From NCBI GenBank assembly GCA_023436245.1, contig JAEZJZ010000078.1, forward strand, positions 79,758 through 143,757: 64,000 bases of DNA, in the 5' to 3' direction. The translations under genes and the position numbers were made by a program. The notes under the pieces are model-generated. The model did no database searches. It was not told where the DNA came from and was given only the letters and a program-made list of their open reading frames with translations. Source of the stretch: Bacillota bacterium (GTDB taxonomy: Bacteria; Bacillota; UBA994; UBA5500). The first letter of the stretch is position 1, and every line of letters starts with the position of its first letter. Positions 3,711 to 53,160 of the stretch are shown here, piece by piece.

Positions 3711-3940
3711 GAGAGCACCTCCGTGGCGAGTCCAATATCGGTTGGGGATGTGGTTGGTTACCGCGGGTACACATGCCAGCAAGAGAGCTCAAGTGGGGCG
3801 GGAGACCTAGGACTCTCTTCTTCTCTTAGCCTCCCTAACATCCTTATGATAAACCCACTCTGAAGGGGCCATGGGCATTTGAAATCAGCGTTTTGCCAAT
3901 AAATGGCCAGCCAATGATCGGCTGGCCATTTCGGATTATC

Positions 3941-5889: not shown

Positions 5890-6109
5890 TTGACAAACCT
5901 CCAATCATCAGCGCATCATGGTCGGCAGTGTATCGCACAAGGACGAGGGCAGCGGTCCAGGTGCGTGGAGCATGCGCATTGTCACATTTCTTCACGCCTC
6001 GGCAGATTCCTCCAAGAATAGGCAAGAAAATGCCTCGTTTTGGCAGGACTCCAGGGATTCCTGGCAGAACGATAAGACCATATGTCAGGATGGCGGGAGG
6101 TGTCAGATA

Positions 6110-7165
6110 GTGAAGCAGGAGTTCGCTACGGTGCTTGAAGGCTATTTGCAGGCCAAACAGGAGGAGTTCACGTCACACACGATGGCTCACCACCTAAGGA
6201 CGGTCTTGCCCGAAGTGCTAATGAGTGAGCTTGACCTGTCTGTGTACACGAGCGATGGGTCGAGTGGAAATGGTCGATGGGTGAAAGTCCCTTGGGTCAG
6301 TGCGTTCCACAAGAGCGTCACCGTCACGGCGCAGAGGGGCTACTATGTCGTCTATCTGTTCGCCGAGGATATGAGCGGTCTGTACATATCACTTAACCAG
6401 GGCTGGACGGATTTCGAAGACAAGTATGGTCGGAGTGAAGGAAGAAAGCAAATCCGCCGATCGGCATTGGCTTTGAGAGCACTCGTAGGGCCGCATCTCA
6501 GACGGCTTGTGGCTGACGAAATCGACTTGGCACGAAAGGGGAGGCTCGCTCTTGGCTATATGGCCGGCCACGTATGCGGAGCCTATTACCCCGCCTCCTG
6601 CATTCCTTCCGAGGAAGAGCTGCGTGCCGACCTTGTCGAGATTCTTTCCCTGTATAATCGGCTAGTGGCAGTGCTCGGAAAAGATTCATGGGTCGAGAAG
6701 GCAGCTCGGCTTGCAGAATCTCAGACCGCAATCGCTGATGACGAACAGGATGAGGGTGACTTCCAGAAGAGGGTTGGACGGAGCCTTCCTACCCAGTCGA
6801 CGCCTGGGCCCAGACCGCGGCAGGAGCCAAAGCATACGAACCGCGGCCCCGTCTGGCCGCGCGACCCCTCAATCGCGCGGGAGGCTTTGATTAGGGCTGA
6901 GTATCGGTGCGAGGTGGATCCCCAGCACATTACCTTTATCTCGGCGGTGACAGGGCAGAACTATGTGGAAGCTCATCACCTGATCCCGATGAGTAGGCAG
7001 GGAGAGTGTGATAACAGCCTTGATGTAGTGGCAAACATCGTGGCGCTGTGTCCGACCTGTCACCGCAAGATTCACTTTGCCGACAAAGACGTATCCAATG
7101 CAATGACATGCGCCCTTGTCGAAGCCAGGCGGAGTAGGCTGGAGGACTACGGAATCCATTCATAA
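6110..7165 (+). CDS. DUF3578 (McrB N-terminal-like) plus HNH endonuclease; putative modification-dependent (type IV-like) restriction enzyme
   Basis: GRWVKVPWVSAFHKSVTVTAQRGYYVVYLFAEDMSGLYISLNQGW matches the DUF3578 core. C-terminal HHLIPMS...CPTCHRKIH is an HNH motif. GTG at 6110 with GGAGG 13 nt upstream. Confidence 0.6.
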   Translation: MKQEFATVLEGYLQAKQEEFTSHTMAHHLRTVLPEVLMSELDLSVYTSDGSSGNGRWVKVPWVSAFHKSVTVTAQRGYYVVYLFAEDMSGLYISLNQGWTDFEDKYGRSEGRKQIRRSALALRALVGPHLRRLVADEIDLARKGRLALGYMAGHVCGAYYPASCIPSEEELRADLVEILSLYNRLVAVLGKDSWVEKAARLAESQTAIADDEQDEGDFQKRVGRSLPTQSTPGPRPRQEPKHTNRGPVWPRDPSIAREALIRAEYRCEVDPQHITFISAVTGQNYVEAHHLIPMSRQGECDNSLDVVANIVALCPTCHRKIHFADKDVSNAMTCALVEARRSRLEDYGIHS

Positions 7166-11349: not shown

Positions 11350-11634
11350 GTGCGGAAAGAGTCCTTTAGGTACATGTTTCTGGCCATGTTCGCTCTAGTA
11401 GGGTTCATGCTCCTGACAAATGGCAGGCCTCGTGTCCTTTGGCCTTTGTGTGCGATATTTGGCGGTATTGTCGCCCTGAACATGCCGGCAGAGTTCCTTA
11501 GAGGCTATGATTCCATCAAGGACAATGCTGGAGAGCTTCGAAGATTTGGATGCCTCAGGGTCATTGTGGGTTATGGGATGATAGCTGTCGGGCTGCTGTT
11601 TGCTCTTGCGTGGATCACCGGCGCAGAGTTCTAG
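11350..11634 (+). CDS. small two-TM membrane protein
   Basis: Hydrophobic segments MFLAMFALVGFMLL and VIVGYGMIAVGLLFALAWI. Start is uncertain. Confidence 0.3.
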   Translation: MRKESFRYMFLAMFALVGFMLLTNGRPRVLWPLCAIFGGIVALNMPAEFLRGYDSIKDNAGELRRFGCLRVIVGYGMIAVGLLFALAWITGAEF

Positions 11635-24843: not shown

Positions 24844-25011
24844 ACACAGCGACTCCTCTCGCTCCTAACTTGGCTCAACCGTATTATATTCTCTATCCTA
24901 TCCCTATATTTTAGCAAGCGATATAGTTGGAGATCTCGCAGCAGAGGCAATGCTTGCTGCCACAGCATAGTAGTCTCTTTGCCGCACCATTCGCGTTGGG
25001 GGGTGGCCAGA

Positions 25012-25512
25012 ATGGCCAAACTGACGGCCAGGCAAGAACGCTTCGTGGAGGAATACCTGATAGACCTTAACGCAACTCAAGCCGCAATCAGGGCTGGCTA
25101 CAGCGTGAAGACAGCAAATGAGCAGGGGTCTCGACTGTTGTCAAATGTTAGTGTTCGCGCGCGCATAGACGAGGCCTTGGCCGAGCGCTCCCGGCGTACT
25201 GGCATCAACCAGGACCGGGTATTGCGCGAGCTCGCCCGGCTTGCCTTCGTTAACGCTCCGGACCTGATCAACGTCACCGACGCGACGCTCCTAGAGGATG
25301 CCTCGCCCGACGACACCGCAGCCATCGCCTCGGTCAAGGTCAAACGCCGTGCAACCGATGACGGCGATGAGGTCGAGCGAGAGATCCGCCTAGCTGACAA
25401 ACTCAAGGCCTTGGAGCTCCTCGGCAAGCATCTCGGAATGTTCACCGATCGGCTGGCCGTGGACATCACCGGCGTCAAGATCGTAGATGACATCGGTGGC
25501 GAGAAAGCGTGA
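25012..25512 (+). CDS. terS: terminase small subunit (P27/Terminase_2 family)
   Basis: LTARQERFVEEYLIDLNATQAAIRAGYS. Confidence 0.7.
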   Translation: MAKLTARQERFVEEYLIDLNATQAAIRAGYSVKTANEQGSRLLSNVSVRARIDEALAERSRRTGINQDRVLRELARLAFVNAPDLINVTDATLLEDASPDDTAAIASVKVKRRATDDGDEVEREIRLADKLKALELLGKHLGMFTDRLAVDITGVKIVDDIGGEKA

Positions 25513-26780
25513 AGCAGGTTAGCCTGAGCAACCTCATCGCTCCCAGCTTCCACGACCTACATCAGGACATCAAGCAGGGCCTGCATACCCACCATTGGCT
25601 GAAGGGCGGACGCGGCAGCACCAAGAGTTCATTTGTCAGTCTGGAGATCATCTTGGGTATGATGAAGCACCCCGAGGCTAACGCGGTCGCGCTGCGCAAG
25701 GTCGGCGTCAACCTCAAGGACAGCGTCTATGAGCAGTTGCAGTGGGCGATTCAGGCTCTAGGGGTGGACCAGTACTGGGACTCGAAGTTAAGCCCTCTTG
25801 AACTCATCTACAGGCCGACTGGGCAGCGCATCATCTTTCGCGGCGCCGACCGCCCGAAGAAGATCAAATCGACCAAGTTCCGTAGAGGATATGCCAGATA
25901 CATCTGGTATGAGGAAGTGGACGAGTTCGGCGGACCAGAAGAGATCCGTATGATCAACCAGTCGCTGATGCGCGGTGGTGAGCAGTTCACAGTTTTCTAC
26001 TCGTACAACCCGCCGCAGAGCCAGCGCAACTGGGTGAACACCGAAGTCCTCGATGAGAGGCCGGACCGCGTGGTCCACCATAGCACTTACCTGACTGTTC
26101 CCCGGTATTGGCTGGGCGAACAGTTTTTTGTTGAGGCGGAGCACCTGAAGGCGACCAAGCCCGAGAAGTACGAGCATGAGTACATGGGCAAGGTCACCGG
26201 TACCGGAGGCGAGGTGTTCACCAACCTGACCATCCGCAAGATTACCGATGAGGAGATTGCCGGTTTTGACCGCATTCACCGCGGATTGGACTTCGGCTAC
26301 GCAGAAGACCCACTCCACTACACAGTCAATCACTACGACCGAAAGCGCCGACGGCTCTACATCTTCTTCGAGATCCACGCAACGAGGCTGAAGAACAGCC
26401 TGGCAGTGGCGCAAATCAAGAGGGAGAACGCAGGCAATCGAACAGTGGTAGCAGACAGCGCCGAGCCGCGGACCATCAATGAGTTCCGCGAGCTCGGCCT
26501 TAACATTCTGCCGGCGAAGAAGGGCCCGGACAGCGTGGAGCACGGCATCAAGTTCCTGCAGGACATGGAGGAGATCGTAATCGATCTGGAGCGCTGCCCG
26601 AACACGGCCCGGGAGTTCATCGGTTACGAACTTGAGAAGGACAGAGAGGGCAACTTCCGGTCGGACTATCCGGATAGAGACAACCACAGCATCGACGCGA
26701 CCAGGTACAGCCTGGAGCACGAGATGCGAAATGCCCGGGCGAAGGTCGGTACCAAGAAATCGGCGTTGGGGGTGAGGTAA
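25509..26780 (+). CDS. terL: terminase large subunit (PBSX XtmB-like)
   Basis: Walker A GGRGSTKS. C-terminal nuclease region. Start overlaps terS (GTGA). Confidence 0.85.
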   Translation: MKQVSLSNLIAPSFHDLHQDIKQGLHTHHWLKGGRGSTKSSFVSLEIILGMMKHPEANAVALRKVGVNLKDSVYEQLQWAIQALGVDQYWDSKLSPLELIYRPTGQRIIFRGADRPKKIKSTKFRRGYARYIWYEEVDEFGGPEEIRMINQSLMRGGEQFTVFYSYNPPQSQRNWVNTEVLDERPDRVVHHSTYLTVPRYWLGEQFFVEAEHLKATKPEKYEHEYMGKVTGTGGEVFTNLTIRKITDEEIAGFDRIHRGLDFGYAEDPLHYTVNHYDRKRRRLYIFFEIHATRLKNSLAVAQIKRENAGNRTVVADSAEPRTINEFRELGLNILPAKKGPDSVEHGIKFLQDMEEIVIDLERCPNTAREFIGYELEKDREGNFRSDYPDRDNHSIDATRYSLEHEMRNARAKVGTKKSALGVR

Positions 26781-28165
26781 TGGCCATCATCAGAGACAGA
26801 GAACTCATACCGGATCTCGAGAGTATTCCGGCGCAAATGATCGTGAGCTGCATCAAAGAGCACCAAGTGGGCGTTGCACGGCTGGACAAGCTGGAACAGT
26901 ACTACCTGGGCAATCACCCAATACTGCAGCGAAACCTCGGAGTTACGACAGGGCTGCCCAATAATCGTCTGGTGGCCAACCACGCCAAGTACATCACGGA
27001 TATCGTGGTCGGCTATGTCACCGGCAACCCGGTGCGGTACAACGGCGAGGGGCTGGACGAGCTACTTCGCATCTATGAGCAGGTGGACATCGTCTCCCAT
27101 GATGCCGAGTTGGCCAAAGACTTGTCCATCTTCGGCGTCGGCCGGGAACTCTACTTCATGTCTAGCGACGAAACGCCTATCCCCAAGACCACGGTCATTG
27201 ACCCTCGACAGATCTTCCTGGTGGTGGATGACTCAGTTGAGTACCGGCCATTGTTCGGTGTGCACTACTACCCAAAGCGCGACATCAACAACCAGCTCGC
27301 CGGGTGGAACGTGCTGGTCTACACGGCCGCAGCCGTCACCAGGTACTTCACCAAGGCGCTGGACGCGCCGGACTATCAGCAGATTGACCAGCAGCCGCAT
27401 TACTTCGGCGCCGTGCCTGTCGTTGAGTTCTGGAACAACGAGGAGTGCCAAGGCGACTTCGAGCAGCAGATCAGTCTGATCGATGCATACAACGTCCTGC
27501 AATCCGATCGGGTGAACGACAAGGAGCAGCTGGTGGACGCAATCCTTATGCTGAAGGGCCTGTCGTTGGGCGATGACGAGGAAGAGGCCTCCCGGGCAAT
27601 CACACAGCTCAAGAAGTACAAGGTGCTGGAGATGCCGATGGCCGAGTCTGATGCGGCCTGGCTGACCAAGCAGTTGAACGAGACCGAGGTGGAGGTGCTC
27701 AGGCAATCCATCCGCCAGGACATTCACGAGTTCAGCATGGTCCCGAACCTAACCGATGAGAACTTCGCTTCGAACGCCTCCGGGGTGGCCATGAAGTACA
27801 AGCTGCTCGGTCTAGAGCAGTTGGCCAAGAACAAGGAGCGTTACTTCGTTCAGGGCCTTCGCGAGCGTCTCAAGCTCTTCGCCAACATTCTGCGCGTTAA
27901 GGGCAAAGCCATCGACGTAAGTGGCGTCGAGATAGTGATGAACCGCAACCTGCCGGCCAACGATCTGGAGATTGCTCAGACCATCTCGACTCTGGCCAAC
28001 ATGGTGTCCAACGAGACGCTGATCTCCCAACTGTCCTTCGTGCATGACGCGGCTGAAGAGACCAAGAAGGTTGTTGCCCAGAAGGACGAAGAAGCCAGGC
28101 GACAGCAGGAGATGTTTAGCCAACAGTTCCCGAAGGACGACCAGGTAGACGAGGATGAGGAGTAG
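26780..28165 (+). CDS. portal protein (SPP1 gp6-like)
   Basis: 461 aa. Position after terL. Start overlaps the upstream stop (TAATG). Confidence 0.75.
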   Translation: MAIIRDRELIPDLESIPAQMIVSCIKEHQVGVARLDKLEQYYLGNHPILQRNLGVTTGLPNNRLVANHAKYITDIVVGYVTGNPVRYNGEGLDELLRIYEQVDIVSHDAELAKDLSIFGVGRELYFMSSDETPIPKTTVIDPRQIFLVVDDSVEYRPLFGVHYYPKRDINNQLAGWNVLVYTAAAVTRYFTKALDAPDYQQIDQQPHYFGAVPVVEFWNNEECQGDFEQQISLIDAYNVLQSDRVNDKEQLVDAILMLKGLSLGDDEEEASRAITQLKKYKVLEMPMAESDAAWLTKQLNETEVEVLRQSIRQDIHEFSMVPNLTDENFASNASGVAMKYKLLGLEQLAKNKERYFVQGLRERLKLFANILRVKGKAIDVSGVEIVMNRNLPANDLEIAQTISTLANMVSNETLISQLSFVHDAAEETKKVVAQKDEEARRQQEMFSQQFPKDDQVDEDEE

Positions 28166-30056
28166 TGCCTACTGGGAGCGCCGCGCCAGGCAGAGGATGG
28201 CGCAGTACCACCGGTCCGCCGACAGCACCATCAACACAGTCACCCGGGCATACGACAAGGCCGTCGCGGACCTGACAGTCGAGATCGAGGCCATCTACAA
28301 CACCTTCGGCGAGAACGGCCAACTCACCCCGGCGGAAGCACGGGCAGCATTGAATGAGGTTATCTCTAGGGGAGAATGGCAGGCACTCAAGGGTAGTTTG
28401 AACCAGATCAAGGACAGGGACATCCGCAAGCAGGTACTTGCTAAGCTGAACGCGCCTGCCTACCGGGCGCGCATCACCCGCCTCGAGGCGCTCAGGGCCC
28501 AGGCATATGTCCAGTCCAAGGTCATCGCCGATGTCGAGCTGGCTGCGGGTAAGGCTGGCTACATGGACGTCATCAACGAGGCCTACTACCGGACCATGTT
28601 TGATCTGCAGAAGGGGCTTGGGGTGGGCTTTGAGTTCGCGGCCATACCGAATCGCGTCGTGAAGACAATCCTGAAGCGTCCCTGGAGTGGACGGCACTTT
28701 AGCAGCCGCATCTGGGGCAATACTGATTACCTGGCGGACAAGCTGACGGAGATCATTACGGCTGGTTTCATGTCGGGCGCCGGGGTAGCAAGCATGCGCC
28801 GGCAGCTGCAGGAAATCACAGGGGCTGGCAAATACGCTGCGGCCAGGCTGATCAGGACTGAGACCACTTATATGGCCAACGCTGCCGAGATGGAGAGTTA
28901 CGCTGAGGCAGGCATTGACCAGTACATCTATGTGGCCACGTTGGACAGCAGGACTTCTCCTATCTGCCAGAAGCTTGACCGCAAGGTGTTCCCCATCAAG
29001 GACGCCGTTCCTGGCAAGAACCTGCCGCCGATGCACCCGAACTGCCGGAGCACGACCAGGGCGTATCTGGGGGCAGATACTCTGAAGGGCGTCGAACGCC
29101 GGGCAAGAGACCCCGAGACTGGGGAGACGTACCTAGTGCCAGGGGACATGGACTACGCCGAGTGGCGGAAGCAGTACGTGAGAGACGCTGCCAGCAATGC
29201 AAGCGCGCCCGGGGCCATTGCCAATGTGGGTAATAATGGGTACAATCAGGATGCGGACTATGTCGTCTCTGCCAGGGATATTTACGCAAAGTGGGACAAG
29301 ACCGACAGGAAGGTGTTCGCGGATGAGCTGCTGAAGGCCAACGGGCTGAACCTGCAGGCTCAGATCCACCCTCTTGGGAAGCCATTCGGGCAGTGCGCTC
29401 TCAACCTTGGGGATCCGCAGATGAGGGTACTAAGCTATGAGCTTAACCTAGACGACAAGCGACCACATCGCTATCAGGTCAAGACGGCGTTTCATGAGCT
29501 GTTTCACGCAAAAGCGAATGGTCTGACCCACGATGCACGCATTCTTGGCTTCGGCGACTGGGGATTCTGCGATGATACCTTCGCCGAGGTGAGTGCGCAT
29601 TACTTTGCCAGAGAGATTGGTATCTCAGAGAACATCACCCCAAGCTACGCGAACCACCTCGCCCGGGCATTGCCTAGGCTGAAGGTATTGCCCGAGTTCG
29701 CTAACTGCCGTTCCATAGCCGATTTTGGCGCTGTGGCGGCAAAGTTCAGGTTTGGACAGACTCCGACCGCCGTATGGAGTGACCTGCACAGACATATCCA
29801 GACGGACCCGGTCAATCTGCTCAAGTACTCGCGAAACTACGTTGACTATATAGAGCAGAATGTAGAGTTGCTTGTGGATCAGCTCTTGGAGAACGTCCCC
29901 ATGTATCGGTCCCATCGCTCCAGTATGATAGCTGATGCTCACTCTCTGCTAGACGTGATCAAGACCGGGAACGGTCAGCTAACAAGTAACCAAGGCTTCG
30001 TGCTTGATAATGTTCTGATTCTGGCCATGAATCACAAGGGAGTGGTTGTTCCATGA
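28155..30056 (+). CDS. minor head (Mu F/SPP1 gp7-like) morphogenesis protein with about 300 aa C-terminal HExxH domain
   Basis: Phage_Mu_F signature ...PPMHPNCRST. C-terminal region contains FHELFH (29493..29507). Confidence 0.7.
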   Translation: MRSSAYWERRARQRMAQYHRSADSTINTVTRAYDKAVADLTVEIEAIYNTFGENGQLTPAEARAALNEVISRGEWQALKGSLNQIKDRDIRKQVLAKLNAPAYRARITRLEALRAQAYVQSKVIADVELAAGKAGYMDVINEAYYRTMFDLQKGLGVGFEFAAIPNRVVKTILKRPWSGRHFSSRIWGNTDYLADKLTEIITAGFMSGAGVASMRRQLQEITGAGKYAAARLIRTETTYMANAAEMESYAEAGIDQYIYVATLDSRTSPICQKLDRKVFPIKDAVPGKNLPPMHPNCRSTTRAYLGADTLKGVERRARDPETGETYLVPGDMDYAEWRKQYVRDAASNASAPGAIANVGNNGYNQDADYVVSARDIYAKWDKTDRKVFADELLKANGLNLQAQIHPLGKPFGQCALNLGDPQMRVLSYELNLDDKRPHRYQVKTAFHELFHAKANGLTHDARILGFGDWGFCDDTFAEVSAHYFAREIGISENITPSYANHLARALPRLKVLPEFANCRSIADFGAVAAKFRFGQTPTAVWSDLHRHIQTDPVNLLKYSRNYVDYIEQNVELLVDQLLENVPMYRSHRSSMIADAHSLLDVIKTGNGQLTSNQGFVLDNVLILAMNHKGVVVP

Positions 30057-30259
30057 TCTATATTCCGGATGAGTGGATGGTCGATGAACTGAAGAAGGAG
30101 CAGGTCCATGACATACTCGGGCGACATTTCTTTACGGACCTCAAGATTGAGGGAGAACCTGACCACAATGCTCTGGCCATTGCTGAGTTGCTGCAAATTG
30201 GAGAACACATCATCGCAGGCATGTTGGAGCGAAACGAGATACGCTTTGGTCTAGCCTAG
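30053..30259 (+). CDS. hypothetical protein
   Basis: ATGA overlap with the upstream gene. Confidence 0.4.
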   Translation: MIYIPDEWMVDELKKEQVHDILGRHFFTDLKIEGEPDHNALAIAELLQIGEHIIAGMLERNEIRFGLA

Positions 30260-30276
30260 AACCAAATAGTGAACTG

Positions 30277-30306
30277 CCACCTTTCGCGCGGAAGGTGGTT
30301 TTTTCA
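30277..30306 (+). terminator. rho-independent terminator
   Basis: CCACCTT-loop-AAGGTGG followed by TTTTTT. Confidence 0.55.
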
Positions 30307-30376: not shown

Positions 30377-31000
30377 GTGGATAAGGAAGAGCTGTTCTAT
30401 TTCGACCTTCAGTGCTTCGCTGATGACGGGGGAAACGGTGATGGTAGCAAGGGGGACGGTGGTGGCGCCGACGGCGGGAATGGAGCCGATTCAGGTTCCG
30501 ATGACGGCAACTCGGGAGGGGACAACAAGACCTTCTCCCAGGACGACGTGAACCGGATTCTTGGTGAGCGTCTCTCCCAGGCTCAGGCAAAGTGGGAGAA
30601 GGACCTGCAGGCCAAACTGGAGGCCGCCAAGACCGAGGCTGAGAAGCTGGCCAAGATGAACGCCGACCAGAAGGCGGAGTACGAGAAGCAGAAGCGTGAG
30701 GATGCTCTGAAGAAGCGCGAGGAAACGCTGCAGCAGCGCGAACGCGATATCAGCCTGCGCGAACTGCGGGCGACTGCGCTTGGCACACTGGCGGAGAAGG
30801 GCATGCCGGAGCAGTTGGCAGATCTGCTTAACTACACAGACGCCGAAAGCACCAGCAAGAGCATTGAGACGGTCGAGAAGATCTTCCGCACTGCCGTTGA
30901 GGCCGGGGTAAATGAACGGCTGAAGGGCAACACCCCTAAGGGTGGGGGTAAGTCGTACGTCACAGGCGACGAGATATCCAAGATCTTCGCGCAGAGGTAA
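30377..31000 (+). CDS. scaffolding protein
   Basis: GTG after GGGAGGA. Gly/Asp-rich N-terminus then charged coiled coil. Precedes the capsid gene. Confidence 0.6.
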   Translation: MDKEELFYFDLQCFADDGGNGDGSKGDGGGADGGNGADSGSDDGNSGGDNKTFSQDDVNRILGERLSQAQAKWEKDLQAKLEAAKTEAEKLAKMNADQKAEYEKQKREDALKKREETLQQRERDISLRELRATALGTLAEKGMPEQLADLLNYTDAESTSKSIETVEKIFRTAVEAGVNERLKGNTPKGGGKSYVTGDEISKIFAQR

Positions 31001-31023: not shown

Positions 31024-31947
31024 ATGCCTATCAACACTTTGGAGTACGCAAAGCTGTTCCAGACCGAGCTGGACAAGCAGGTCCTCCAGCAGGCGACTAC
31101 CGGCTGGATGGAGGCCAACGCCGGCCAGGTTCGCTACAACGGCGGCGACGAAATCAAGATTCCAGACATCGTGGTACAGGGTCTGGCGGATTATGACCGT
31201 GACAACGGCTTCAACCGCGGCGCCGTCACCTTCAAGTACCAGACCCACAAGCTGACCCAAGACCGTGGCCGCACCTTCCACATCGATGCCATGGACGTCG
31301 ACGAGACCAATTTCGGCGTGGCAGCTGCGAACGTGCTGGCCGAGTTCCAGCGTACGCAGGTCATCCCGGAGATCGACAGCTACCGGTACAGCCGGATTGC
31401 TGCGCTGGCCGTCGCCGGATCCCAGAGTGAGGAGTACACGCCGGCGGAAGCAACTGTGCTGCAGAAGTTGCTTTCTCACCTCTACAAGCTGGCAGATGCC
31501 GGTCTAGACTTGTCCCAGCTCGTGATTCCGATCAGCTTCAAGGCGTATGAGGTGCTCACTAACAACGAGCGCATCCTGAAGAAGCTGGATGTAGCCCAGT
31601 TCGCGCAGGGCGGGGTAAACCTGACCATCAAGTCGTTGGAAGGCGTGCCGCTCATCCCTGTGTCCTCCAACCGCATGAAGAGCGCCTACGTGTTCTACGA
31701 TGGCGCTACCGCCGGGCAGACCGCGGGCGGGTTCGTGCCGGCGCCGACTGCAGTCGACATCAACTGGCTGGTGCTGAACCGGGCAGCCGTAATCGGCATC
31801 TCGAAGACCGACGTCGTTCGCATCTTCGACCCGATGGCCAACCAGGACGCGAACGCCTGGAAGATTGACTACCGGAAGTACCACGACCTGATTATCCCGC
31901 AGAACAAGATCGCCACGATCTTCGCCTGCGTCACGCCGGCTGCGTAG
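31024..31947 (+). CDS. major capsid protein
   Basis: ATG after AAGGAGGAAG. 307 aa. Position after scaffold. Confidence 0.65.
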   Translation: MPINTLEYAKLFQTELDKQVLQQATTGWMEANAGQVRYNGGDEIKIPDIVVQGLADYDRDNGFNRGAVTFKYQTHKLTQDRGRTFHIDAMDVDETNFGVAAANVLAEFQRTQVIPEIDSYRYSRIAALAVAGSQSEEYTPAEATVLQKLLSHLYKLADAGLDLSQLVIPISFKAYEVLTNNERILKKLDVAQFAQGGVNLTIKSLEGVPLIPVSSNRMKSAYVFYDGATAGQTAGGFVPAPTAVDINWLVLNRAAVIGISKTDVVRIFDPMANQDANAWKIDYRKYHDLIIPQNKIATIFACVTPAA

Positions 31948-43169: not shown

Positions 43170-43487
43170 ATGGGGATGGAGTGGGACACAGTTCTGCCCG
43201 CACTGATTGCTGCGGCCGCGGCTGTCAGTGGCATGGTGCTCGGCTGGACAGCCAGGGCAAGGGACACACGACATGAGATCCGTGCAGACGCCGGGTCAAG
43301 CGCAGCCCTGCGCTCTGATGTTGAGTACATCAAGCGTGGAGTGGATGACCTTCGCCTAGACATTAAGGACCAGGGAAGGCGCTTCGATGAACTGGCTGAG
43401 CGCGTGACGCGGGTGGAGGAGTCGAGCAAGCAGGCGCACAAGCGAATTGACCGATTGGATGGTGTTGACCGTGGCGCTGACGACTAG
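43170..43487 (+). CDS. putative holin (single TM plus coiled coil)
   Basis: N-terminal TM VLPALIAAAAAVSGMVLGW. Immediately upstream of the endolysin. Confidence 0.4.
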   Translation: MGMEWDTVLPALIAAAAAVSGMVLGWTARARDTRHEIRADAGSSAALRSDVEYIKRGVDDLRLDIKDQGRRFDELAERVTRVEESSKQAHKRIDRLDGVDRGADD

Positions 43488-44718
43488 GCAACAGTTCATT
43501 ACCAGCAGAAACCGACCAGGCACCAGAATCACGCCGACGAGCGTCACTGTTCACAACACCGCCACGCCAAACGCCACAGCACAGAACGAACGAGACTTTC
43601 TGCAGACCCACCCGGATGCGAAGGTCTCGTTCCATTTTGCCGTGGATGATGCTGAGGCCGTGCAATGTCTGCCACTGGATGAGATGTCCTGGCACGCCGG
43701 CAGCCGGGCTAACCGACAGAGTATGAGCATCGAAGTCTGCGAGTTCGACGACCGGGAGCGCCAGACGATGGCCAACCGCAATGCGGCTGAGCTGGTCTCC
43801 CAATTGCTCGCTCAGTTTGGATGGGGGCTGGAGCAGGTCAAGACACACAAGGACTGGACCGGCAAGGAGTGTCCGCGGAAGCTACTACCGATGTGGGATG
43901 AGTTCCTGTTGATGATTGCGAGAGGGGGAGAAGAGATGAGATTCAAGGATGTTCCTGCTACCCACTGGGCGGCGGGAGCGATTGAGCAGGCGGTGAGCCA
44001 GGGCTGGGTGGGTGGCTTCACGGATGGCACGTTCCGGCCGGAGGAACCGGTTACCCGGGCGCAGGCGGTATCCATGGTCGGCCGGGCGACAGTCTACATG
44101 GCCAATCGGCTGCAGGCCCTGATCGCCAAGTGCAAGCCGGCGGTAGTCAAAGTGACCAGCCGATCCGCCGCAGGCACCGTCCTTGGTGCCGGCAGCATCA
44201 TCACGACTGATGGCTACATCCTCACCAACGAGCATGTGGTTAAGGACCGGCAGGCTGGGCAGTTCTACCCTGACCTACAGGTGCACATCGTGACTGACCC
44301 AGAGCTCTACGAGGTAACCAAGGCATACCCGGCCACGGTCGTCGCCACGAGTAACTGGGATGACCTGGCGCTCCTCAAGGTGGACCTGAAGGGGCTGCCC
44401 ATCCTGCCGTTGGCCAGCAAGACGCCGCCAGAGGGTACAGCAGTGGTAGCAGTGGGGCATCCGTCCGGAATGCAGTATACCAGCAGCGCCGGCGTTGTGA
44501 CTCAAGACATGGCTGTAATCGGCGGGATGATCACGGTGATGCAAACTGATGCAGCCATCAACCCTGGTAACAGTGGTGGCCCGATCGTGGATCTTGGCGG
44601 TCGCATGGTGGCCGTGGCCGTGTCTAAGCTGCAGGACTTGGACAATGTTGCGTTTGGTGTGCGCATCGAAGACGTGCGTAACTTCGTGGCCAAGCATCTG
44701 CCTAACCTAGTTAAGTAA
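43447..44718 (+). CDS. endolysin: N-acetylmuramoyl-L-alanine amidase plus SLH domain plus trypsin-like (S1) peptidase domain
   Basis: Amidase_2 N-terminus (ITPTSVTVHNTA...SFHFAVDD). SLH (FKDVPATHWAAGAIEQAVSQGWVGGFTDGTFRPEEPVTRAQ). Serine protease GNSGGP plus His/Asp. Confidence 0.75.
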   Translation: MTDWMVLTVALTTRQQFITSRNRPGTRITPTSVTVHNTATPNATAQNERDFLQTHPDAKVSFHFAVDDAEAVQCLPLDEMSWHAGSRANRQSMSIEVCEFDDRERQTMANRNAAELVSQLLAQFGWGLEQVKTHKDWTGKECPRKLLPMWDEFLLMIARGGEEMRFKDVPATHWAAGAIEQAVSQGWVGGFTDGTFRPEEPVTRAQAVSMVGRATVYMANRLQALIAKCKPAVVKVTSRSAAGTVLGAGSIITTDGYILTNEHVVKDRQAGQFYPDLQVHIVTDPELYEVTKAYPATVVATSNWDDLALLKVDLKGLPILPLASKTPPEGTAVVAVGHPSGMQYTSSAGVVTQDMAVIGGMITVMQTDAAINPGNSGGPIVDLGGRMVAVAVSKLQDLDNVAFGVRIEDVRNFVAKHLPNLVK

Positions 44719-47033: not shown

Positions 47034-49643
47034 TTGGCATTCAAGAAGACACACAAAGCGATTTCCGCAGTTGCAAGTCCAGAGGAGTTGTTCATGGATC
47101 TCAGGAACAGATCTGTCCAGGGCCTGATGCTCCATCAAGGGGACATTCTGCGTGAGTACAAAAGGAAAATTCTCGACTCTGCCGATCCACCGCGGGACGT
47201 TGCTATCGAGTTGCCGACCGGAAGTGGCAAGACATTAGTTGGGCTCCTAATTGGTGAGTACCGACGGCGTGCGCTTGAGGAGCGAGTGTTATACCTGTGT
47301 CCAACCAAGCAACTTGTTCACCAGGTCGTAGCACAGGCGCGACAGAAGTACGGCATCAAGGCTCTTCCGTTTGTCGGGGCCCAATCAGCCTATGATCCGT
47401 CAGACCGTAGCGACTATCTCTTTGGTAGGGCGATCGCCGTGAGCACTTACAGTGGTTTGTTCAACTCCAATCCGTTCTTCAGCAACCCTGATACCATAAT
47501 CCTGGATGATGCCCACGTGGCAGAAAACTACATGGCCGCTATGTGGTCTTTGGAACTGCCCCGGTCGGAGTATCCAGAGGTTTACGAGTCAGTCATCAGG
47601 CTTCTGAAAGACCGAATACCTGATTACCAGCATGACAGAATGTTGGCTGGCGATCCGACGCCCAATGACAGGGCGGTGGTTGACAAAGTCCCCACCCCGG
47701 TCCTTATGGATATTTCGCGCAACCTGATAGCACTGCTTGACACCCGACTCAGGGAGAAGAGGGCGTCATACTCATGGAATGCGATTCGTGATCATCTGGC
47801 GGCGTGTCACCTATACTTCTGTTGGGACGGTATTCTCCTTAGGCCGATTATTCCCCCTACGATGACACATAGGCCGTTCGCTGAGGCCAAGCAGAGGCTC
47901 TACATGTCCGCGACTCTTGGGAAGGCCGGGGATCTTGAGCGCTCCACCGGGGTCAAGCGAGTCTCCAGGCTTAGTATACCGGGAGGATGGGATAGACAAG
48001 GAGTCGGTAGGAGGCTTTTCTTCTTCCCAGAGCTTAGCCTGACCCGAGATGAGACCGATTCCCTTGTGCTAAGCATGATTAAGAAGGTTCCGAGGGCACT
48101 GATTCTCGTCCCTGATAGTCAGTCAGCCCTAAAATGGAGAGAGCTCGTGGCTAGCTCGACTGACTATGCGGTGCTTGGTGCGCAGGATATCGAGACTTCA
48201 AAGGACCCCTTTGTTACCAAGAGACACGCAGTTGCCGTTCTCGCGAATAGGCTGGACGGAATCGACTTCCCTGAAGAGGAGTGTCGCTTGCTGATCGTGA
48301 GCGGCTATCCGCGAGCGACGAACCTGCAGGAGCGGTTTCTGCAGAGCCGAATGGCTGCTGCTTTCTTGCTGAGGGACCGTATCAAGGCACGGGTCCAGCA
48401 AGCCATTGGTCGTTGCACCAGAAGTGCGACCGATTACTCTGCGGTTTGTGTATTAGGGGCAGAGCTAAGCGATACTTTGCTCCACAAGGAAGACCGTACG
48501 CGATTCCATCCAGAACTGCAGGCTGAGTTGGACTTTGGGCGCCACCAGTGTATGGATACTAGCGCGGACGAAATGCTGGACAATCTTCGAATCTTTCTCG
48601 AGCATGGGGACGATTGGGATGCAGCCGATTCTGAGATCGTGCAAATCCGAACGGAGCTTACAGCCAGAGACGATCCTGCTGCCGAAAAACTGCGTCTTTC
48701 AGTTGAACACGAAGTGGCCTACGCATACGCGATCTGGAGAGGTGACTACCCGAAGGCCATTGAAGAGTGTGACAGTTCACTGGCAGCCCTGGTTGGGGAC
48801 GACGTGAAGGGATACCGTGGTTTTTGGAATTACCTTGCTGGTTGTGCCGCGCGTCTTGGCAGCCAGGCGGGACTCGTACATCTTGAACAGGTTGCAGTAA
48901 AGCATTTTCACTCAGCTTCAGCGTGTTCCGATTCTGTAGGCTGGTTCCGGGCTTTGGCGAATGATCAGCCCGGTCAACCAGAAGAGGAACAGGTGGTCTT
49001 CGAGCGAGAGCTTGTTGACGTCATCGAGCGGCTTGAGGCTGTGCTGGATGACATGGGTACCTCAAGTCCGCGCCGATTTGAGAAGGAAGCTAGCGAAATA
49101 CTGGAGCTCCTGAGCTCGACCGAGGCAAAGAAATTTGAGGCCGGACAGGTCAAGCTTGGTACCCTCCTAGGTTATAAGTCGAGCAATACTGATGGAAAGG
49201 CTGGCCCAGACCCCTGGTGGATTGCATCAGACACAGTCTGCTTGGTCTCAGAAGAGACTTGGAGAGAGAATGAGCTCTTCATCTCAGTCAACAAGGCGCG
49301 TCAAGCTGCGACACACGAGAGCTGGATAAGGGGGCACTTAGCCGACCTAAGTCCGAACGCTACCGTAGTGACAGTGTTCATAACAAATGCGACAGCTGTC
49401 GACGCAGAAGCCCTGACCCTCACCCCCAATCTCTACTACTGGGGCATACCTGAGTTTCGGACTTGGGCTGCCCATTCAATAGATGTCGTGCGAAGTCTTC
49501 GATCTCAGTTTCCCGGCCCGGGAGACATCATTTGGAGAGCATTGGCCATGGAGAAGTACAGAGAACATGCCATGGACCCCCTTTCCCTCGTGACCGCGGT
49601 TAAGGATAGACCCCTTAGCAAACTCGAGATCAGAAATCACTGA
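47034..49643 (+). CDS. SF2 helicase (DEAH-like) with about 400 aa uncharacterised C-terminal region
   Basis: TTG start after GGAGGTGAT. Motif I LPTGSGKT, motif II LDDAH, SAT, motif VI QAIGRCTR. No N-terminal HsdR-type nuclease domain. Confidence 0.7.
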   Translation: MAFKKTHKAISAVASPEELFMDLRNRSVQGLMLHQGDILREYKRKILDSADPPRDVAIELPTGSGKTLVGLLIGEYRRRALEERVLYLCPTKQLVHQVVAQARQKYGIKALPFVGAQSAYDPSDRSDYLFGRAIAVSTYSGLFNSNPFFSNPDTIILDDAHVAENYMAAMWSLELPRSEYPEVYESVIRLLKDRIPDYQHDRMLAGDPTPNDRAVVDKVPTPVLMDISRNLIALLDTRLREKRASYSWNAIRDHLAACHLYFCWDGILLRPIIPPTMTHRPFAEAKQRLYMSATLGKAGDLERSTGVKRVSRLSIPGGWDRQGVGRRLFFFPELSLTRDETDSLVLSMIKKVPRALILVPDSQSALKWRELVASSTDYAVLGAQDIETSKDPFVTKRHAVAVLANRLDGIDFPEEECRLLIVSGYPRATNLQERFLQSRMAAAFLLRDRIKARVQQAIGRCTRSATDYSAVCVLGAELSDTLLHKEDRTRFHPELQAELDFGRHQCMDTSADEMLDNLRIFLEHGDDWDAADSEIVQIRTELTARDDPAAEKLRLSVEHEVAYAYAIWRGDYPKAIEECDSSLAALVGDDVKGYRGFWNYLAGCAARLGSQAGLVHLEQVAVKHFHSASACSDSVGWFRALANDQPGQPEEEQVVFERELVDVIERLEAVLDDMGTSSPRRFEKEASEILELLSSTEAKKFEAGQVKLGTLLGYKSSNTDGKAGPDPWWIASDTVCLVSEETWRENELFISVNKARQAATHESWIRGHLADLSPNATVVTVFITNATAVDAEALTLTPNLYYWGIPEFRTWAAHSIDVVRSLRSQFPGPGDIIWRALAMEKYREHAMDPLSLVTAVKDRPLSKLEIRNH

Positions 49644-49903
49644 CACTGCCAGAACCATTTAGCCGAAACCACCTACTCGGAGACAGGCCTCTGAGCAGCA
49701 TAAGAGGATCTCCAAGCAGAGTCGCAAATGAGATAGAATAGACAACAACTAGATACACTTGTCGCCGCCTTACGGTGCGCAAGGGGTAGTCGGTTGGGAA
49801 GGTGGCATTATTCCAGAGGGCCCGCATCCACCGGCACCTTCACTCTTGGAATGCGCAAGCTCGGCGGAACAAGTAATGGCTGATGCCAGAAAAGAGGAGA
49901 AGC

Positions 49904-51688
49904 ATGGAGCTCAAGGAAGGTTATCTTTACGATTTCATCAGCGGAACCCCTGTTCGCGCCACCCCGGAAGAGATAGACGCGGTTCAGGTTTTCTCCCAAA
50001 TGTTAGTTAACGACTATGGCTATCCCAAGAAGCTCATTCAAACTCGTCCGCAATGGCGAGTGAAGGCCAGGCCGTCAGACACGAAGAAGGAGTATCCAAT
50101 AGACATAGCCGTTTTTTCTGATGAGCGCCACACAGAGGACAGCATCCAGATTATCGTCGAATGCAAGAAGAAGACCAGGAAAGACGGCAAGACACAGCTC
50201 GCTGACTATCTGAGATTTTCCAGAGCTCGAGTCGGTGTTTGGTTCAATGGTAAGGAACGCCTATTCCTTCATAAGCATGAGCAGGATGGGCGAGTTGAGT
50301 TCTCTGAGTTGCCCAATATTCCCCGGTTCGGCGAGAGAGTTGAAGACATTGGCCGATTCCGTCGACGGGACCTTAGGCCTGCAACCAACCTAAAGTCCGT
50401 TTTTCGGGCAATCCGAAACTATCTAGCAGCGAATGCCGTGGGCATCACCCGTGACGAAGTGTTCGCGCAGCAGCTCATAAACCTGATCTTCTGTAAGATC
50501 TACGATGAAAGGTTCACAAAGAAGAATGATATTGTGACCTTTCGTGCCGGTACCAACGAGCCTGATGCTGACGTTAGGGCCAGGATACTTGGGCTATTTG
50601 AGAAGGTCAAGTCTCAGTATGATGATGTAATTGATGTTGGCGACTCGATAGTCCTTGATGACCGCTCACTCGTCTACGTAGTAGGTGAGCTGCAGCTCTA
50701 CTCGCTGCAGGATAGCACAAGGGATGCTGTTGGAGATGCATTTGAGGTGTTCATCGGTCCGTCTCTGAAGGGTGGGCAGGGTCAGTTCTTCACCCCAAGA
50801 AACGTCGTGAAGATGATCATCGATATGGTTGATCCCACGCCAGAGCAAAAAGTCATCGATCCTGCGTGCGGCAGCGGCGGATTCCTTGTGGAGGCACTTC
50901 GCCACGTATGGGGGAAGGTGCAGGAGAAAGGCGAAAGCCTGGGATGGCCGGAACACGAGATTGAGGCCGAGAAGCAAAAGGTTGCAATCAGGAACTTCCG
51001 TGGCATAGACAAGGACTCTTTCTTGAGCAAAGTAGCCAAGGCGTATATGGCAATACTCGGCGATGGAAGGGGCGGTGTGTTCTGCGAGAATAGCCTTGAG
51101 TCTCCGGCCAACTGGCATAGCTACACAAGGAATCAGGTTCAGCTTAACGAGTTTGACGTAGTCATTACCAATCCACCTTTTGGCAAGAAGCTATCCATCG
51201 ATTCGGAAGACATTCTTAGGCATTACGACTTGGGTCACAAATGGGACTACGACAGCAGCACTGATACATTTCAGAAAGGCTCGCTCCAGGACAAGCAGCC
51301 TCCCCAAATACTGTTCATTGAGAGGTGCCTGGATCTTCTCAAGGACGGGGGGAAACTGGGCATTGTGCTGCTAGAGAGCATCTTTGGGATGCCCAAGTAT
51401 CGCTACGTTGTGGATTACCTCGAAAAGAGAACCAAGATTCTTGCACTGGTAACCATGCCTGAAGATCTATTCCAGCCTCACACACACGCCAAGTGCTGTG
51501 TCCTAATCTGCGAGAAGACCTCCGATCAGCAGGAAGACCACGAGATCTTCATGGCCGATGTGAAGTGGTGCGGCCACGATAGCCGTGGCAATCCCACTGT
51601 CCGGGTGGACTCGAGCGGCGCGGAGGTTCTCCTCGATGACATCCCTCGCGTTGCTCCTTTATACCACGAAGGGGCAAAACAGAGATGA
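49904..51688 (+). CDS. restriction-modification subunit: N-terminal HSDR_N-like PD-(D/E)xK nuclease fused to gamma-class N6-adenine methyltransferase (BcgI A-like/type IIB-IIG)
   Basis: N-terminus YPIDIAVF...IVECKKK (D/E-x-K). Methyltransferase motifs IDPACGSGGFL and NPPFG. Start could be ATG 49904 or 49883. Confidence 0.6.
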   Translation: MELKEGYLYDFISGTPVRATPEEIDAVQVFSQMLVNDYGYPKKLIQTRPQWRVKARPSDTKKEYPIDIAVFSDERHTEDSIQIIVECKKKTRKDGKTQLADYLRFSRARVGVWFNGKERLFLHKHEQDGRVEFSELPNIPRFGERVEDIGRFRRRDLRPATNLKSVFRAIRNYLAANAVGITRDEVFAQQLINLIFCKIYDERFTKKNDIVTFRAGTNEPDADVRARILGLFEKVKSQYDDVIDVGDSIVLDDRSLVYVVGELQLYSLQDSTRDAVGDAFEVFIGPSLKGGQGQFFTPRNVVKMIIDMVDPTPEQKVIDPACGSGGFLVEALRHVWGKVQEKGESLGWPEHEIEAEKQKVAIRNFRGIDKDSFLSKVAKAYMAILGDGRGGVFCENSLESPANWHSYTRNQVQLNEFDVVITNPPFGKKLSIDSEDILRHYDLGHKWDYDSSTDTFQKGSLQDKQPPQILFIERCLDLLKDGGKLGIVLLESIFGMPKYRYVVDYLEKRTKILALVTMPEDLFQPHTHAKCCVLICEKTSDQQEDHEIFMADVKWCGHDSRGNPTVRVDSSGAEVLLDDIPRVAPLYHEGAKQR

Positions 51689-53160
51689 TCCATTATTGGC
51701 ATAAGAAGAGTGATATCAAAGCCAGGGTGTATATCCCAAAGTACTATGACCCATTCCTAGTAGACGATCTCCAGTCGCTGAGGGACACTCATGACCTGTT
51801 TGTTGTAGAACAGCTTGTTAGCGAGGGTGCCATATCAATTAGCACAGGGCACGAGATAGGAAAGCTGGCTTACGGCACAGGTGATATACCATTCATTCGG
51901 ACATCGGACATATCAAACTGGGAAATCAAGTCCATGCCGAAGCAAGGCGTCTCAGAAGAGATCTATCAGGAGTACGCCGAGTCACAGGATATGCAGGTTG
52001 GAGACATATTGCTGGTGCGGGATGGAACCTATTTGATCGGAACCAACTGCATAGTCACTGAACTTGACAAGAAGTGTCTATATCAGTCGCACATTCTAAA
52101 AATCAGGGTCAACGATAAGGCAAAGGTTGATCCTCGAATACTGTTCCTTGCGTTGAACTCTGACTTGGTTCAGCGTCAGATTCGTAGCTTTCAGTTCACG
52201 GCCGATACCATTGACACAATCGGCAACCGTTACCTCGAGCTGGTGATCCCTATTCCGAAAAGCGCATCAAAGAGGAACGAGCTCTCCGGGAGAATCAGAA
52301 CCCACTTGGACACACGCGAGCGTGGCAGGGCGTTCATAAAGCAAGCCCCAGTTCTAATGGAGGAGGTACTTGAGAGAGGTACAGTTGAGCCAATCCAAGC
52401 CTTCATGGAGAAGGACTGGGCAGACATTCTATCTGACATGAGTCAGAATACCATTGTCTCTGAGTTTGGCCCCTTTCAGGCATTCTGGCAGCGATCAGGG
52501 AGCATTAGGGAAAGAATCTACCTACCTAAGTACTACGATCCTGAGATAGTGAGCGAACTTGCTGGCCTGGGAGAGACTTGCAATTGTGTTTCGATTGGCG
52601 ATCTCGTCAATGACGGCCTGATTCAGTGTTCCACCGGTGACGAAATCGGCAAGATGGCATATGGAACCGGCGAGATTCCGTTCATCCGGACTAGTGATTT
52701 CTCCAGCTGGGAGATCAACCATAACCCAAAGCAAGGGGTTTCGGATGAGATCTATGAGCAGTATGCCGACTCGCAGGATACCAGGAGCGGCGACATTTTC
52801 ATCGTGCGTGATGGCACCTATTTGGTAGGGACATCATGCATTGTCACTGAGCATGATGCCAAGAGTCTGTACTGTGGAGGAATCTACAAGATTCGTGTCC
52901 TGGATGAGTCTGCAATTAGCCCGTGGCTGCTGCTAGGATTGCTCAACTCGTTCATTGTGAAGCGCCAGATACGAACAAAGCAGTTTACCCGCGACGTCAT
53001 AGATACACTCGGTCAGCGACTGTTCGAGATTATCCTGCCGATACCTAAATCAAAGGAAGTGCGCGAGCAGATTTCCGAGCAGGTCAAGGAAATAGTCTTG
53101 TCGCGGATAGACGCCCGTCAGGCAATCTCCAAGTTGGCGGACGAGCTAATAGAGGGATAA
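51685..53160 (+). CDS. HsdS-like specificity subunit with two near-identical target-recognition domains
   Basis: Two halves share long identical stretches (IPKYYDP..., GDIPFIRTSD..., VRDGTYL.GT.CIVTE). ATGA overlap with the upstream gene. Confidence 0.75.
   Translation: MIHYWHKKSDIKARVYIPKYYDPFLVDDLQSLRDTHDLFVVEQLVSEGAISISTGHEIGKLAYGTGDIPFIRTSDISNWEIKSMPKQGVSEEIYQEYAESQDMQVGDILLVRDGTYLIGTNCIVTELDKKCLYQSHILKIRVNDKAKVDPRILFLALNSDLVQRQIRSFQFTADTIDTIGNRYLELVIPIPKSASKRNELSGRIRTHLDTRERGRAFIKQAPVLMEEVLERGTVEPIQAFMEKDWADILSDMSQNTIVSEFGPFQAFWQRSGSIRERIYLPKYYDPEIVSELAGLGETCNCVSIGDLVNDGLIQCSTGDEIGKMAYGTGEIPFIRTSDFSSWEINHNPKQGVSDEIYEQYADSQDTRSGDIFIVRDGTYLVGTSCIVTEHDAKSLYCGGIYKIRVLDESAISPWLLLGLLNSFIVKRQIRTKQFTRDVIDTLGQRLFEIILPIPKSKEVREQISEQVKEIVLSRIDARQAISKLADELIEG

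Follow-up and report, generated by a model that had tools for sequence, protein, structure and literature searches.

A gene of the phage head module in a 64,000-nucleotide (nt) stretch of a Bacillota bacterium genome (GTDB lineage Bacteria; Bacillota; UBA994; UBA5500; NCBI GenBank assembly GCA_023436245.1, contig JAEZJZ010000078.1, positions 79,758 to 143,757 of the forward strand; the whole stretch is hereafter called the window) is best explained as encoding a capsid-packaged metallopeptidase of the MuF polymorphic-toxin type with a cognate inhibitor or immunity partner, a reading to which we give a probability of about 0.55. The open reading frame (ORF) of 633 amino acids (aa) joins a MuF minor head module to a predicted gluzincin-like zinc metallopeptidase domain, and it is followed at once by a 68-aa ORF that belongs to a conserved family.

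MuF-fused effectors are thought to be a general route by which temperate phages carry enzymes into the next host, and those characterised experimentally in the literature found are of the nucleotide-synthetase (Apk2) type only. Metallopeptidase cargo is counted in a survey of MuF proteins (Jamet et al. 2017). One such family, comprising some 157 clusters and 131 or more viral contigs, is now defined, together with a high-confidence model with named residues (H447, E448, H451, E478 and Y498) and a cultured, genetically tractable homologue pair, TP84_08 and TP84_09 of phage TP-84. Should all functional readings fail, the locus would stand as that of a correctly annotated, ordinary minor head protein of the MuF toxin type.

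A predicted metallopeptidase domain on a MuF minor head protein

Profile searches matched the N-terminal part of the protein to Phage_Mu_F (PF04233; aa 196-301, E 3.9e-19, 69.9 bits against a cut-off of 29.6) and to the SPP1 gp7 family TIGR01641 of NCBIfam (aa 198-301, E 6.7e-30, 103.7 bits against a cut-off of 39.65). The gene stands directly after the portal gene in the packaging and head module, and by its sequence the 633-aa ORF reads as an SPP1-gp7/Mu-F minor head protein. A preliminary description of this DNA had named a Phage_Mu_F (Mu F/gp7-like) protein from the signature MHPNCRST and had pointed to an HExxH motif in its C-terminal extension. The first claim is borne out by the two profile matches and by the signature itself, and the second by the sequence HELFH at aa 447-451, preceded by an F whose codon lies at 29490..29492. 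The extension, which had been placed at 29142..30056 (aa 330-633), is likewise real, and its boundaries were refined by the full-length model, in which the folded domain starts at aa 365.

That model (mean predicted local distance difference test score, pLDDT, 85.7; predicted template modelling score, pTM, 0.60) contains two well-folded modules, aa 1-343 and aa 365-633. The linker pLDDT is below 50, and the pTM of 0.60 points to the absence of a fixed orientation between the two modules; in the model the peptidase domain is a cargo held by a flexible tether.

A HMMER scan with aa 365-633 as query, run exhaustively over 1.84 billion cluster representatives, retrieved 157 clusters at E <=1e-3, including 50 at E <=1e-30; a word-indexed protein search returned only 2-5 relatives. 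In nearly all 157 clusters the domain occupies the extreme C-terminus of a protein of 560-700 aa. The carrier is almost always a MuF1 or MuF2 protein, and the sole other context seen is a phage protein beside a GpA terminase. No carrier of the type V, VI or VII secretion systems (T5SS, T6SS, T7SS) was seen among these clusters, for which the annotation of matches is limited. Of the 153 family sequences retrieved, nearly all that are not fragments contain the pattern K-T-x-[FL]-H-E-x-x-H. In a trimmed domain alignment of 35 sequences with 25-47% identity to the query, H447, E448, H451, E478 and Y498 are invariant, and all five positions are likewise conserved in the further alignments. Because E478 lies 27 residues after H451 in an ExxA context, the arrangement corresponds to the 'glutamate helix' signature of gluzincins.

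HExxH occurs three times in the window's six-frame translation against 4.3 expected, and 0.017 occurrences are expected in this one protein; the motif is counted as real for its conservation among homologues and not for its number in the window. A chance HExxH was ruled out for this protein by family conservation together with the predicted fold. The other two occurrences, at 11434 (-) and 44688 (-), are put down to chance; one meets a stop codon after nine residues, and the other is on the strand opposite to the endolysin ORF.

The invariance of the five residues is the ground for inferring catalysis, and the peptidase is probably active. A non-catalytic alternative would make the domain a zincin-derived module with a structural, DNA-binding or portal-plug role, its metal site kept for stability. 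Such a role has parallels in ArdC, whose metalloprotease activity is dispensable for the antirestriction phenotype (PMC7213743), and in inactive C-domains of the MuF family such as the PBECR domain of Mu F, and it would also accommodate a large helical subdomain that has no known role. It is nevertheless quite improbable, since E448, which is the catalytic base and no metal ligand, remains invariant with the other four residues down to about 25% identity, and a degenerate motif was met in a single full-length member (P0076).

An AlphaFold2 model of aa 365-633, built on a 62-sequence alignment, reached a pLDDT of 97.1 and a pTM of 0.94. Two N-terminal helices are followed by three beta-strands, the HExxH helix, a short element, the long helix bearing E478 and an all-helical subdomain of about 130 residues. 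The model thus shows HExxH on an alpha-helix, the third-ligand Glu on the long helix that comes next, a sheet of three or more beta-strands ahead of the helix with the active site, and an overall fold remotely similar to that of solved members. The zincin-like domain proposed in the preliminary description withstood structure prediction, which returned a zincin topology at these scores. Foldseek searches of the Protein Data Bank (PDB) gave no significant match, the weak top matches including MATCAP, oligoendopeptidase F, jannalysin and CapP, and searches of BFVD gave two 'minor capsid proteins' of the same family, weak IrrE and SprT-like matches and nothing else. Against PDB sequences phmmer found nothing, and a profile search found coiled-coil noise only (TRIM45, ATP synthase subunit b).

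Eleven of 62 relatives matched PF18818, the zincin-like MPTase-PolyVal family, weakly at E <=0.01 (best E 8.7e-07), and a 'faint' PF18818 match is on record for a 671-aa homologue; the window protein itself gave no match to this family at E <=1 (gathering score 27.5 bits). The window domain is accordingly a relative of PF18818 and not a demonstrable member. The fold match is remote and of genuine zincin/gluzincin type, outside current curated models, and the domain is kin to the metallopeptidases of the 'polyvalent proteins' of phages and plasmids (PMC5512222). Taken together, a zincin-like domain is very probably fused to the MuF module.

Some long members of the family (900-1400 aa; P0078, P0087, P0103, P0039 and P0059) contain one or two extra, different HExxH motifs of the F-Y-H-E-L-G-H-R-V-H-Q type upstream of the family domain. 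Pfam searches of 44 mostly long or atypical members found ADPrib_exo_Tox in two and Portal_Mu in two. These long members look like polyvalent-protein architectures.

The closest MuF N-modules, sought among 50,697 phage records, belong to Streptococcus prophages. In BLASTP comparisons the minor head protein of phiARI0462 shares 35% identity with the window protein over aa 22-365, and the MuF protein of Javan1 shares 36% up to about aa 375. The alignments end at aa 365-375, similarity ceases at aa 362-366, and none extends beyond the shared …PETG…YV…YNQ(D) junction. Past this point Javan1 carries an ADP-ribosyltransferase (ART; PF03496, E 8e-19) and phiARI0462 an Apk2-like domain, which confirms the precedents of domains fused to gp7 homologues that the preliminary description had cited. 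In phiARI0462 a 69-aa ORF and a 'metal-dependent phosphohydrolase' come next, an order that corresponds to the apk2-iapK-aph1 arrangement of S. pneumoniae prophages (PMC12226406), where IapK blocks the active site of the Apk2 toxin (PMC12226406). Homologous N-domains with unrelated C-domains at one junction, as read from these sequences, make up the defining 'polymorphic' pattern of MuF toxins. Among the traits given for MuF polymorphic toxins (Jamet et al. 2017), the locus has a MuF N-domain with a predicted C-terminal enzyme domain, a common junction, a small ORF of less than 150 aa directly downstream and a temperate phage or prophage as carrier.

The small partner gene and its stand-alone copies

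The partner gene is the most informative new feature of the locus, and its family was previously unannotated. Its start codon is the ATG of ccATGA and overlaps the MuF gene's stop codon and the sense codon before it, and a Shine-Dalgarno-like AAGGGAG is found 10 nt upstream of this ATG. A scan of IMG/VR gave 131 related viral contigs, and the 80 best among them were retained as loci. In these 80 loci, in TP-84 and in vB_BpsM-61, an ORF of 56-77 aa starts between -30 and +3 nt of the MuF stop codon in all but truncated cases, and a member of the partner family is directly downstream in about 77 of the 80 as well as in both named phages. The family consensus is M-x-Y-I-P-x-x-W-x-x-N-x-x-N-x-x-x-V-x-x-I-L … L-G-E-x-x-I. 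The family is hydrophilic and acidic (median isoelectric point 4.6), which rules out the membrane protein suggested by the annotation of TP84_09, and it matched nothing in Pfam or NCBIfam.

A hidden Markov model (HMM) of the partner matched 82 of 87 sequence sources and missed three contigs that end at the gene as well as the two controls with other C-domains (L084 and L085). The controls are the informative results here, since matches to loci used in building the HMM are expected by construction. Whether the carrier is of the MuF1 type (PF04233) or of the MuF2 type (PF06152, for example in TP-84 and in Paenibacillus prophages), the partner comes after the peptidase. Moreover, one phage contig with a GpA-type large terminase (L105, 4001-8033) encodes two tandem paralogues, 565 and 551 aa long, in which a divergent copy of the peptidase domain sits mid-protein; each paralogue is followed by its own ORF of 62-63 aa beginning MIYIP or EIYIP, and these pairs indicate that peptidase and partner stay together outside MuF carriers.

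Partner divergence correlates with divergence of the peptidase domain at r 0.80, and at a partial r of 0.68 when the MuF part is controlled for; against the MuF module the partial r, controlling for the peptidase, is 0.16. The partner tracks the peptidase domain and not the carrier. This co-divergence fits a cognate toxin-immunity cassette without proving one, because physical adjacency adds to the pattern. That the 68-aa ORF encodes a cognate inhibitor or immunity protein we regard as an even chance.

A profile of the small family found 48 clusters in a collection of 5.8 billion proteins, and the genomic contexts of nine were looked up. Six were canonical, with the order portal, MuF-peptidase, small ORF, scaffold and capsid, and the other three comprised two kinds of stand-alone copy. 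The first kind is represented by two clusters, P0185 and P0198 (79 and 102 contigs), in which a partner homologue stands a few nt beyond the degenerate repeat that closes a cas13a-cas1-cas2 CRISPR array. In six such loci (L087-L092) the orphan gene encodes a 75-aa homologue, at 3001-3228 of each, and the repeat is GATATAGACCACCCCAATATCGAAGGGGACTAAAAC, which we take to be of the Leptotrichia shahii type. The phage-like stretch at the Cas13a loci measures 303 nt only and is 95% identical to the phage contigs L016 and L017. It takes in the last ~30 nt of the MuF gene, then the small ORF and some 45 nt past it, and no peptidase or phage genes were found near the orphan in L087-L092. One spacer in the arrays of L087, L088 and L089 matches a MuF-peptidase phage contig (L019, 12769-12800) at 29 of 32 positions (E 1.7e-5), suggesting that MuF-peptidase phages infect the lineage that holds the orphan gene.

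The second kind was found in Geobacillus stearothermophilus (CP016552.1; 3292-3711 of the extracted locus L096), where 321 nt are 90% identical to TP-84 and cover the 3' end of TP84_08 and the whole of TP84_09. Two 30-nt repeats of CRISPR type are present (3292-3321 and 3359-3388), and the phage-like stretch starts 2 nt past the second of them. This orphan is flanked by Rpn/YhgA-like genes, one full and one truncated, and Cas9 and Cas6 genes lie within 3.5 kb. On sequence grounds these are two independent captures of the partner gene alone, in unrelated hosts, each abutting a CRISPR repeat.

The stand-alone copies match the pattern known as 'orphan immunity gene' in polymorphic toxin systems, a hint that the peptidase acts inside recipient cells. 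A bolder proposal is that the partner is the antidote to an injected metallopeptidase directed against a host defence or stress-response component, and that the antidote gene alone has been captured repeatedly and fixed beside CRISPR arrays, in Leptotrichia-like Cas13a loci and in G. stearothermophilus. We consider this unlikely. If true, it would amount to counter-counter-defence, in which the phage's own immunity gene lets hosts disarm an anti-defence protease delivered by the virion, and a phage-delivered protease and its cellular target would be directly testable in the cultured TP-84/Geobacillus system. The orphan genes, if selected and not accidental, would tie virion-delivered proteases to the arms race of defence and counter-defence.

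Virion location, proposed action and locus context

Mass spectrometry of purified virions detected TP84_08, the counterpart of the window protein in phage TP-84 (PMC5889276). When TP84_08 carries an N- or C-terminal tag the phages are viable, and the tags are detectable on blots and poorly accessible on particles, which the authors read as termini buried in the capsid (PMC12205831). In SPP1, gp6-gp7 interaction targets gp7 to the capsid interior (PMC6316719). The window MuF-peptidase is likely to be packaged in the capsid.

The following course of events is proposed. The MuF module would bind the SPP1-type portal and so bring a few copies of the protein into the procapsid, a step modelled on SPP1 gp6-gp7 and supported by the detection of TP84_08 in virions; the portal protein encoded upstream is the expected docking partner of a gp7/MuF protein. 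The disordered linker of 21 residues would tether the 269-aa gluzincin-type zinc metallopeptidase, whose predicted active site comprises the metal ligands H447, H451 and E478, the general base E448 and, as helper, Y498. The 68-aa acidic protein, apparently coupled in translation, would be the cognate partner, most likely an inhibitor or immunity protein that silences the enzyme in the producing or lysogenic cell, as IapK does after the Apk2 MuF toxin; linkage and co-divergence of the pair are observed, and binding and inhibition are suggested by analogy. On infection, in the most conjectural step, the peptidase may enter with the DNA, or work at the portal while ejection takes place, and may cut one host protein or several to the phage's benefit, with a defence, stress-response or regulatory protein as candidate target. 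Delivery into the host with action on host proteins is a tentative proposal, to which we give somewhat less than an even chance.

The same location in the procapsid would be expected of a capsid-internal maturation protease, that is, a tethered peptidase which degrades or trims scaffolding or other internal proteins. PHROG 595, labelled 'head maturation protease', matches aa 5-521 of the protein. No S78, S49 or U9-type protease is encoded between the portal and capsid genes of the window, and 40 ORFs taken from about 25 related loci contained none either, only the scaffold families PF06810 and PF14265; a portal-to-capsid layout without a prohead protease gene recurs in these relatives, and the 'prohead protease' of TP-84, TP84_10, is a scaffold protein. 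The PHROG label is, however, an annotation and not a tested function. The same protease-less module of portal, MuF, scaffold and capsid occurs with ART or Apk2-like cargo, and in SPP1 without any C-domain, so this head type does not need the peptidase. The virion proteins of TP-84 are reported at their predicted masses (PMC5889276), and maturation would leave unexplained both a linked, co-diverging partner and its orphan chromosomal copies. We therefore hold this explanation to be rather unlikely. TP84_10 (L001, 5073-5900), annotated as 'putative prohead protease', matches Phage_scaffold (PF06810, E 2.8e-15) and no protease family, and its annotation is thus probably wrong. A canonical prohead protease (HK97 S78/U35, ClpP/S49-like or T4 gp21 U9) was rejected as a candidate for the window protein, which resembles none of them in sequence or fold.

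A peptidase that merely releases itself, cutting its own linker or MuF module at the portal during packaging or ejection and having no host substrate, is improbable as well. Autoprocessing has been proposed as the commonest role of zincin-like metallopeptidases (MPTases) in virion-packaged polyvalent proteins (Iyer et al. 2017; PMC5512222), the linker is disordered and accessible in the model, and the longer members with extra HExxH domains or an ART domain could need freeing. Most members, however, consist of MuF and peptidase only and have nothing else to free, and C-terminally tagged TP84_08 is still detected in virions (PMC12205831; the band size is not stated in the text). An inhibitor-like partner and its orphan copies better suit an enzyme that acts in trans.

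Action on the cell envelope is the least probable of the alternatives and can be given very little weight. A peptidase aiding the passage of DNA or tail through peptidoglycan has a parallel in phi24B, which packages a polyvalent protein with a metallopeptidase domain for which an envelope role has been suggested. The window protein, by contrast, is predicted inside the head at the portal rather than on the tail, an amidase endolysin is encoded separately by the phage, and an acidic intracellular partner would be unexpected for an extracellular enzyme. A peptidoglycan hydrolase was also rejected as an identity for the domain, with no LAS/M23 similarity and no support from the fold.

Several points weigh against a delivered peptidase with a cognate inhibitor. 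Plain physical linkage predicts the same co-divergence of a small ORF with an adjacent 3' domain, and the stand-alone copies represent two events only, which may be by-products of spacer-phage or Rpn-mediated recombination without selection. The C-domain of the window protein matched no peptidase model of Pfam or NCBIfam, the all-helical subdomain of about 130 aa found no structural match, and no experimental study of MuF metallopeptidase cargo was found in the literature searched. In 2006 Vinga et al. reportedly observed no co-ejection of gp7 with SPP1 DNA in vitro, and injection of MuF proteins is in general a proposal. Finally, small ORFs between gp7 and the scaffold gene occur also in phages that lack a toxin domain (SPP1 ORFs 8-10; PMC6316719).

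The segment around the gene is a classical SPP1-type packaging and head module (Table 1). A 281-kb metagenome scaffold carries an identical protein in the same gene order, with the partner ORF called as a gene and with non-phage genes flanking the locus; this embedding and the large serine recombinase identify the element as a prophage of the temperate type.

Table 1. Features of the MuF-metallopeptidase locus and its surroundings (positions in the window; aa numbers refer to the 633-aa protein)
Feature	Residues	Position	Strand	Remarks
Large serine recombinase		2244..3782	-	temperate-type marker
Small terminase		24979..25512		head module member
Large terminase		25509..26780		head module member
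SPP1-type portal gene		26780..28165	+	Pfam SPP1_portal, E 2.6e-108; 11-nt overlap with MuF start
MuF-metallopeptidase gene, whole		28155..30056	+	633 aa plus stop
MuF / SPP1-gp7 minor head module	1-343	28155..29183	+	Pfam PF04233, TIGR01641; folded in full-length model
Pfam Phage_Mu_F core	196-301	28740..29057	+	
MHPNCRST	293-300	29031..29054	+	
Disordered linker, low-complexity ASNASAPGAIANVGNNGYNQ	344-364	29184..29246	+	pLDDT <50; ends at YNQD junction
C-terminal gluzincin-like metallopeptidase domain (predicted)	365-633	29247..30053	+	core ~aa 365-500, then all-helical subdomain, ~130 aa
HExxH (H447, E448, H451)	447-451	29493..29507	+	on predicted active-site helix aa 438-452
E478, predicted third metal ligand	478	29586..29588	+	E-x-x-A (E478-V-S-A), helix aa 466-487
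Y498 in invariant P-S-Y motif	498	29646..29648	+	candidate transition-state or substrate-stabilising tyrosine
Partner ORF, 68 aa, acidic		30053..30259	+	conserved family, downstream of peptidase
Terminator-like hairpin plus T-run		30276..30305	+	consensus match only; hairpin at 30276..30299; between partner ORF and scaffold gene
Scaffolding protein, DUF4355		30377..31000	+	context gene
Major capsid protein		31024..31947	+	context gene; head-tail connector genes after
Amidase endolysin		43447..44718	+	ORF in the 64-kb window

The endolysin-like ORF is unusual in having three parts, of which one is an N-acetylmuramoyl-L-alanine amidase (Amidase_2), another an SLH domain and the third a trypsin-like serine peptidase domain; its SLH domain suggests, by sequence, a host with an S-layer. 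Defence-type genes are found on both sides of the prophage. An MrcB_N-HNH fusion resembling type IV restriction enzymes (5918..7165, +) lies close to the serine recombinase, and downstream of the prophage 47034..53160 (+) encodes a DEAD/ResIII helicase as well as an N6-methylase that carries an HSDR_N domain. An ORF of 1456 aa is located at 58493..62863.

Comparison with known systems

The pair TP84_08/TP84_09 of TP-84, with counterparts in vB_GthS_PK2.1 and vB_BpsM-61, belongs to the same peptidase family (about 32% identity, all key residues kept) and the same small-partner family. It differs in having a MuF2 / Phage_min_cap2 carrier (PF06152) and a K/P-rich linker of about 100 aa, in bearing no annotation beyond 'minor capsid protein' and 'putative membrane protein', and in residing in a phage described as a lytic thermophage. 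SPP1 gp7, the founding MuF/gp7 member (TIGR01641), is likewise a portal-binding protein present in few copies inside the capsid, but it has no C-terminal enzymatic domain.

Close in organisation is Apk2-IapK(-Aph1) of S. pneumoniae prophages (L084), which shares a homologous MuF N-module, the order terminase, portal, MuF-toxin, small ORF, scaffold and capsid, the …PETG…YV…YNQ junction and an ORF of about 69 aa starting a few nt from the toxin stop codon. The C-domain there is a (p)ppApp synthetase, whereas a peptidase is predicted here; the small ORFs are unrelated in sequence, the small-family HMM missing L084, and the second, product-hydrolysing immunity gene of that system has no counterpart in the window. 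Toxicity and immunity are experimental findings for Apk2-IapK, while the window pair is known from sequence and models. The MuF-ADP-ribosyltransferase fusions (Javan1, L085) carry their effector domain at the same junction behind an N-module 36% identical to that of the window protein, but with ART cargo (PF03496) and without an adjacent small ORF of the partner family.

Outside the MuF proteins, the minigluzincins (projannalysin, 4jix; proabylysin, 4jiu; selecase, 4qhf) differ in being stand-alone archaeal proteins of about 100 aa with no phage context that are inhibited by their own C-terminal tail, at 12-18% identity to the window domain. The C-terminal metalloprotease of ArdC and the PF18818 polyvalent proteins share the gluzincin core, in which HExxH is followed by a Glu on the next helix (ExxA) and further downstream by a Tyr, and their carrier protein also travels with the invading DNA. 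In ArdC these residues are H201, E202, H205 and E229 with Y255 as helper (PMC7213743), and Y498 may by analogy play the part of Y255. The carrier is the ssDNA-binding ArdC-N domain in ArdC and a capsid MuF module here, and the window protein is further set apart by its extra helical subdomain of about 130 aa and by a dedicated small partner gene.

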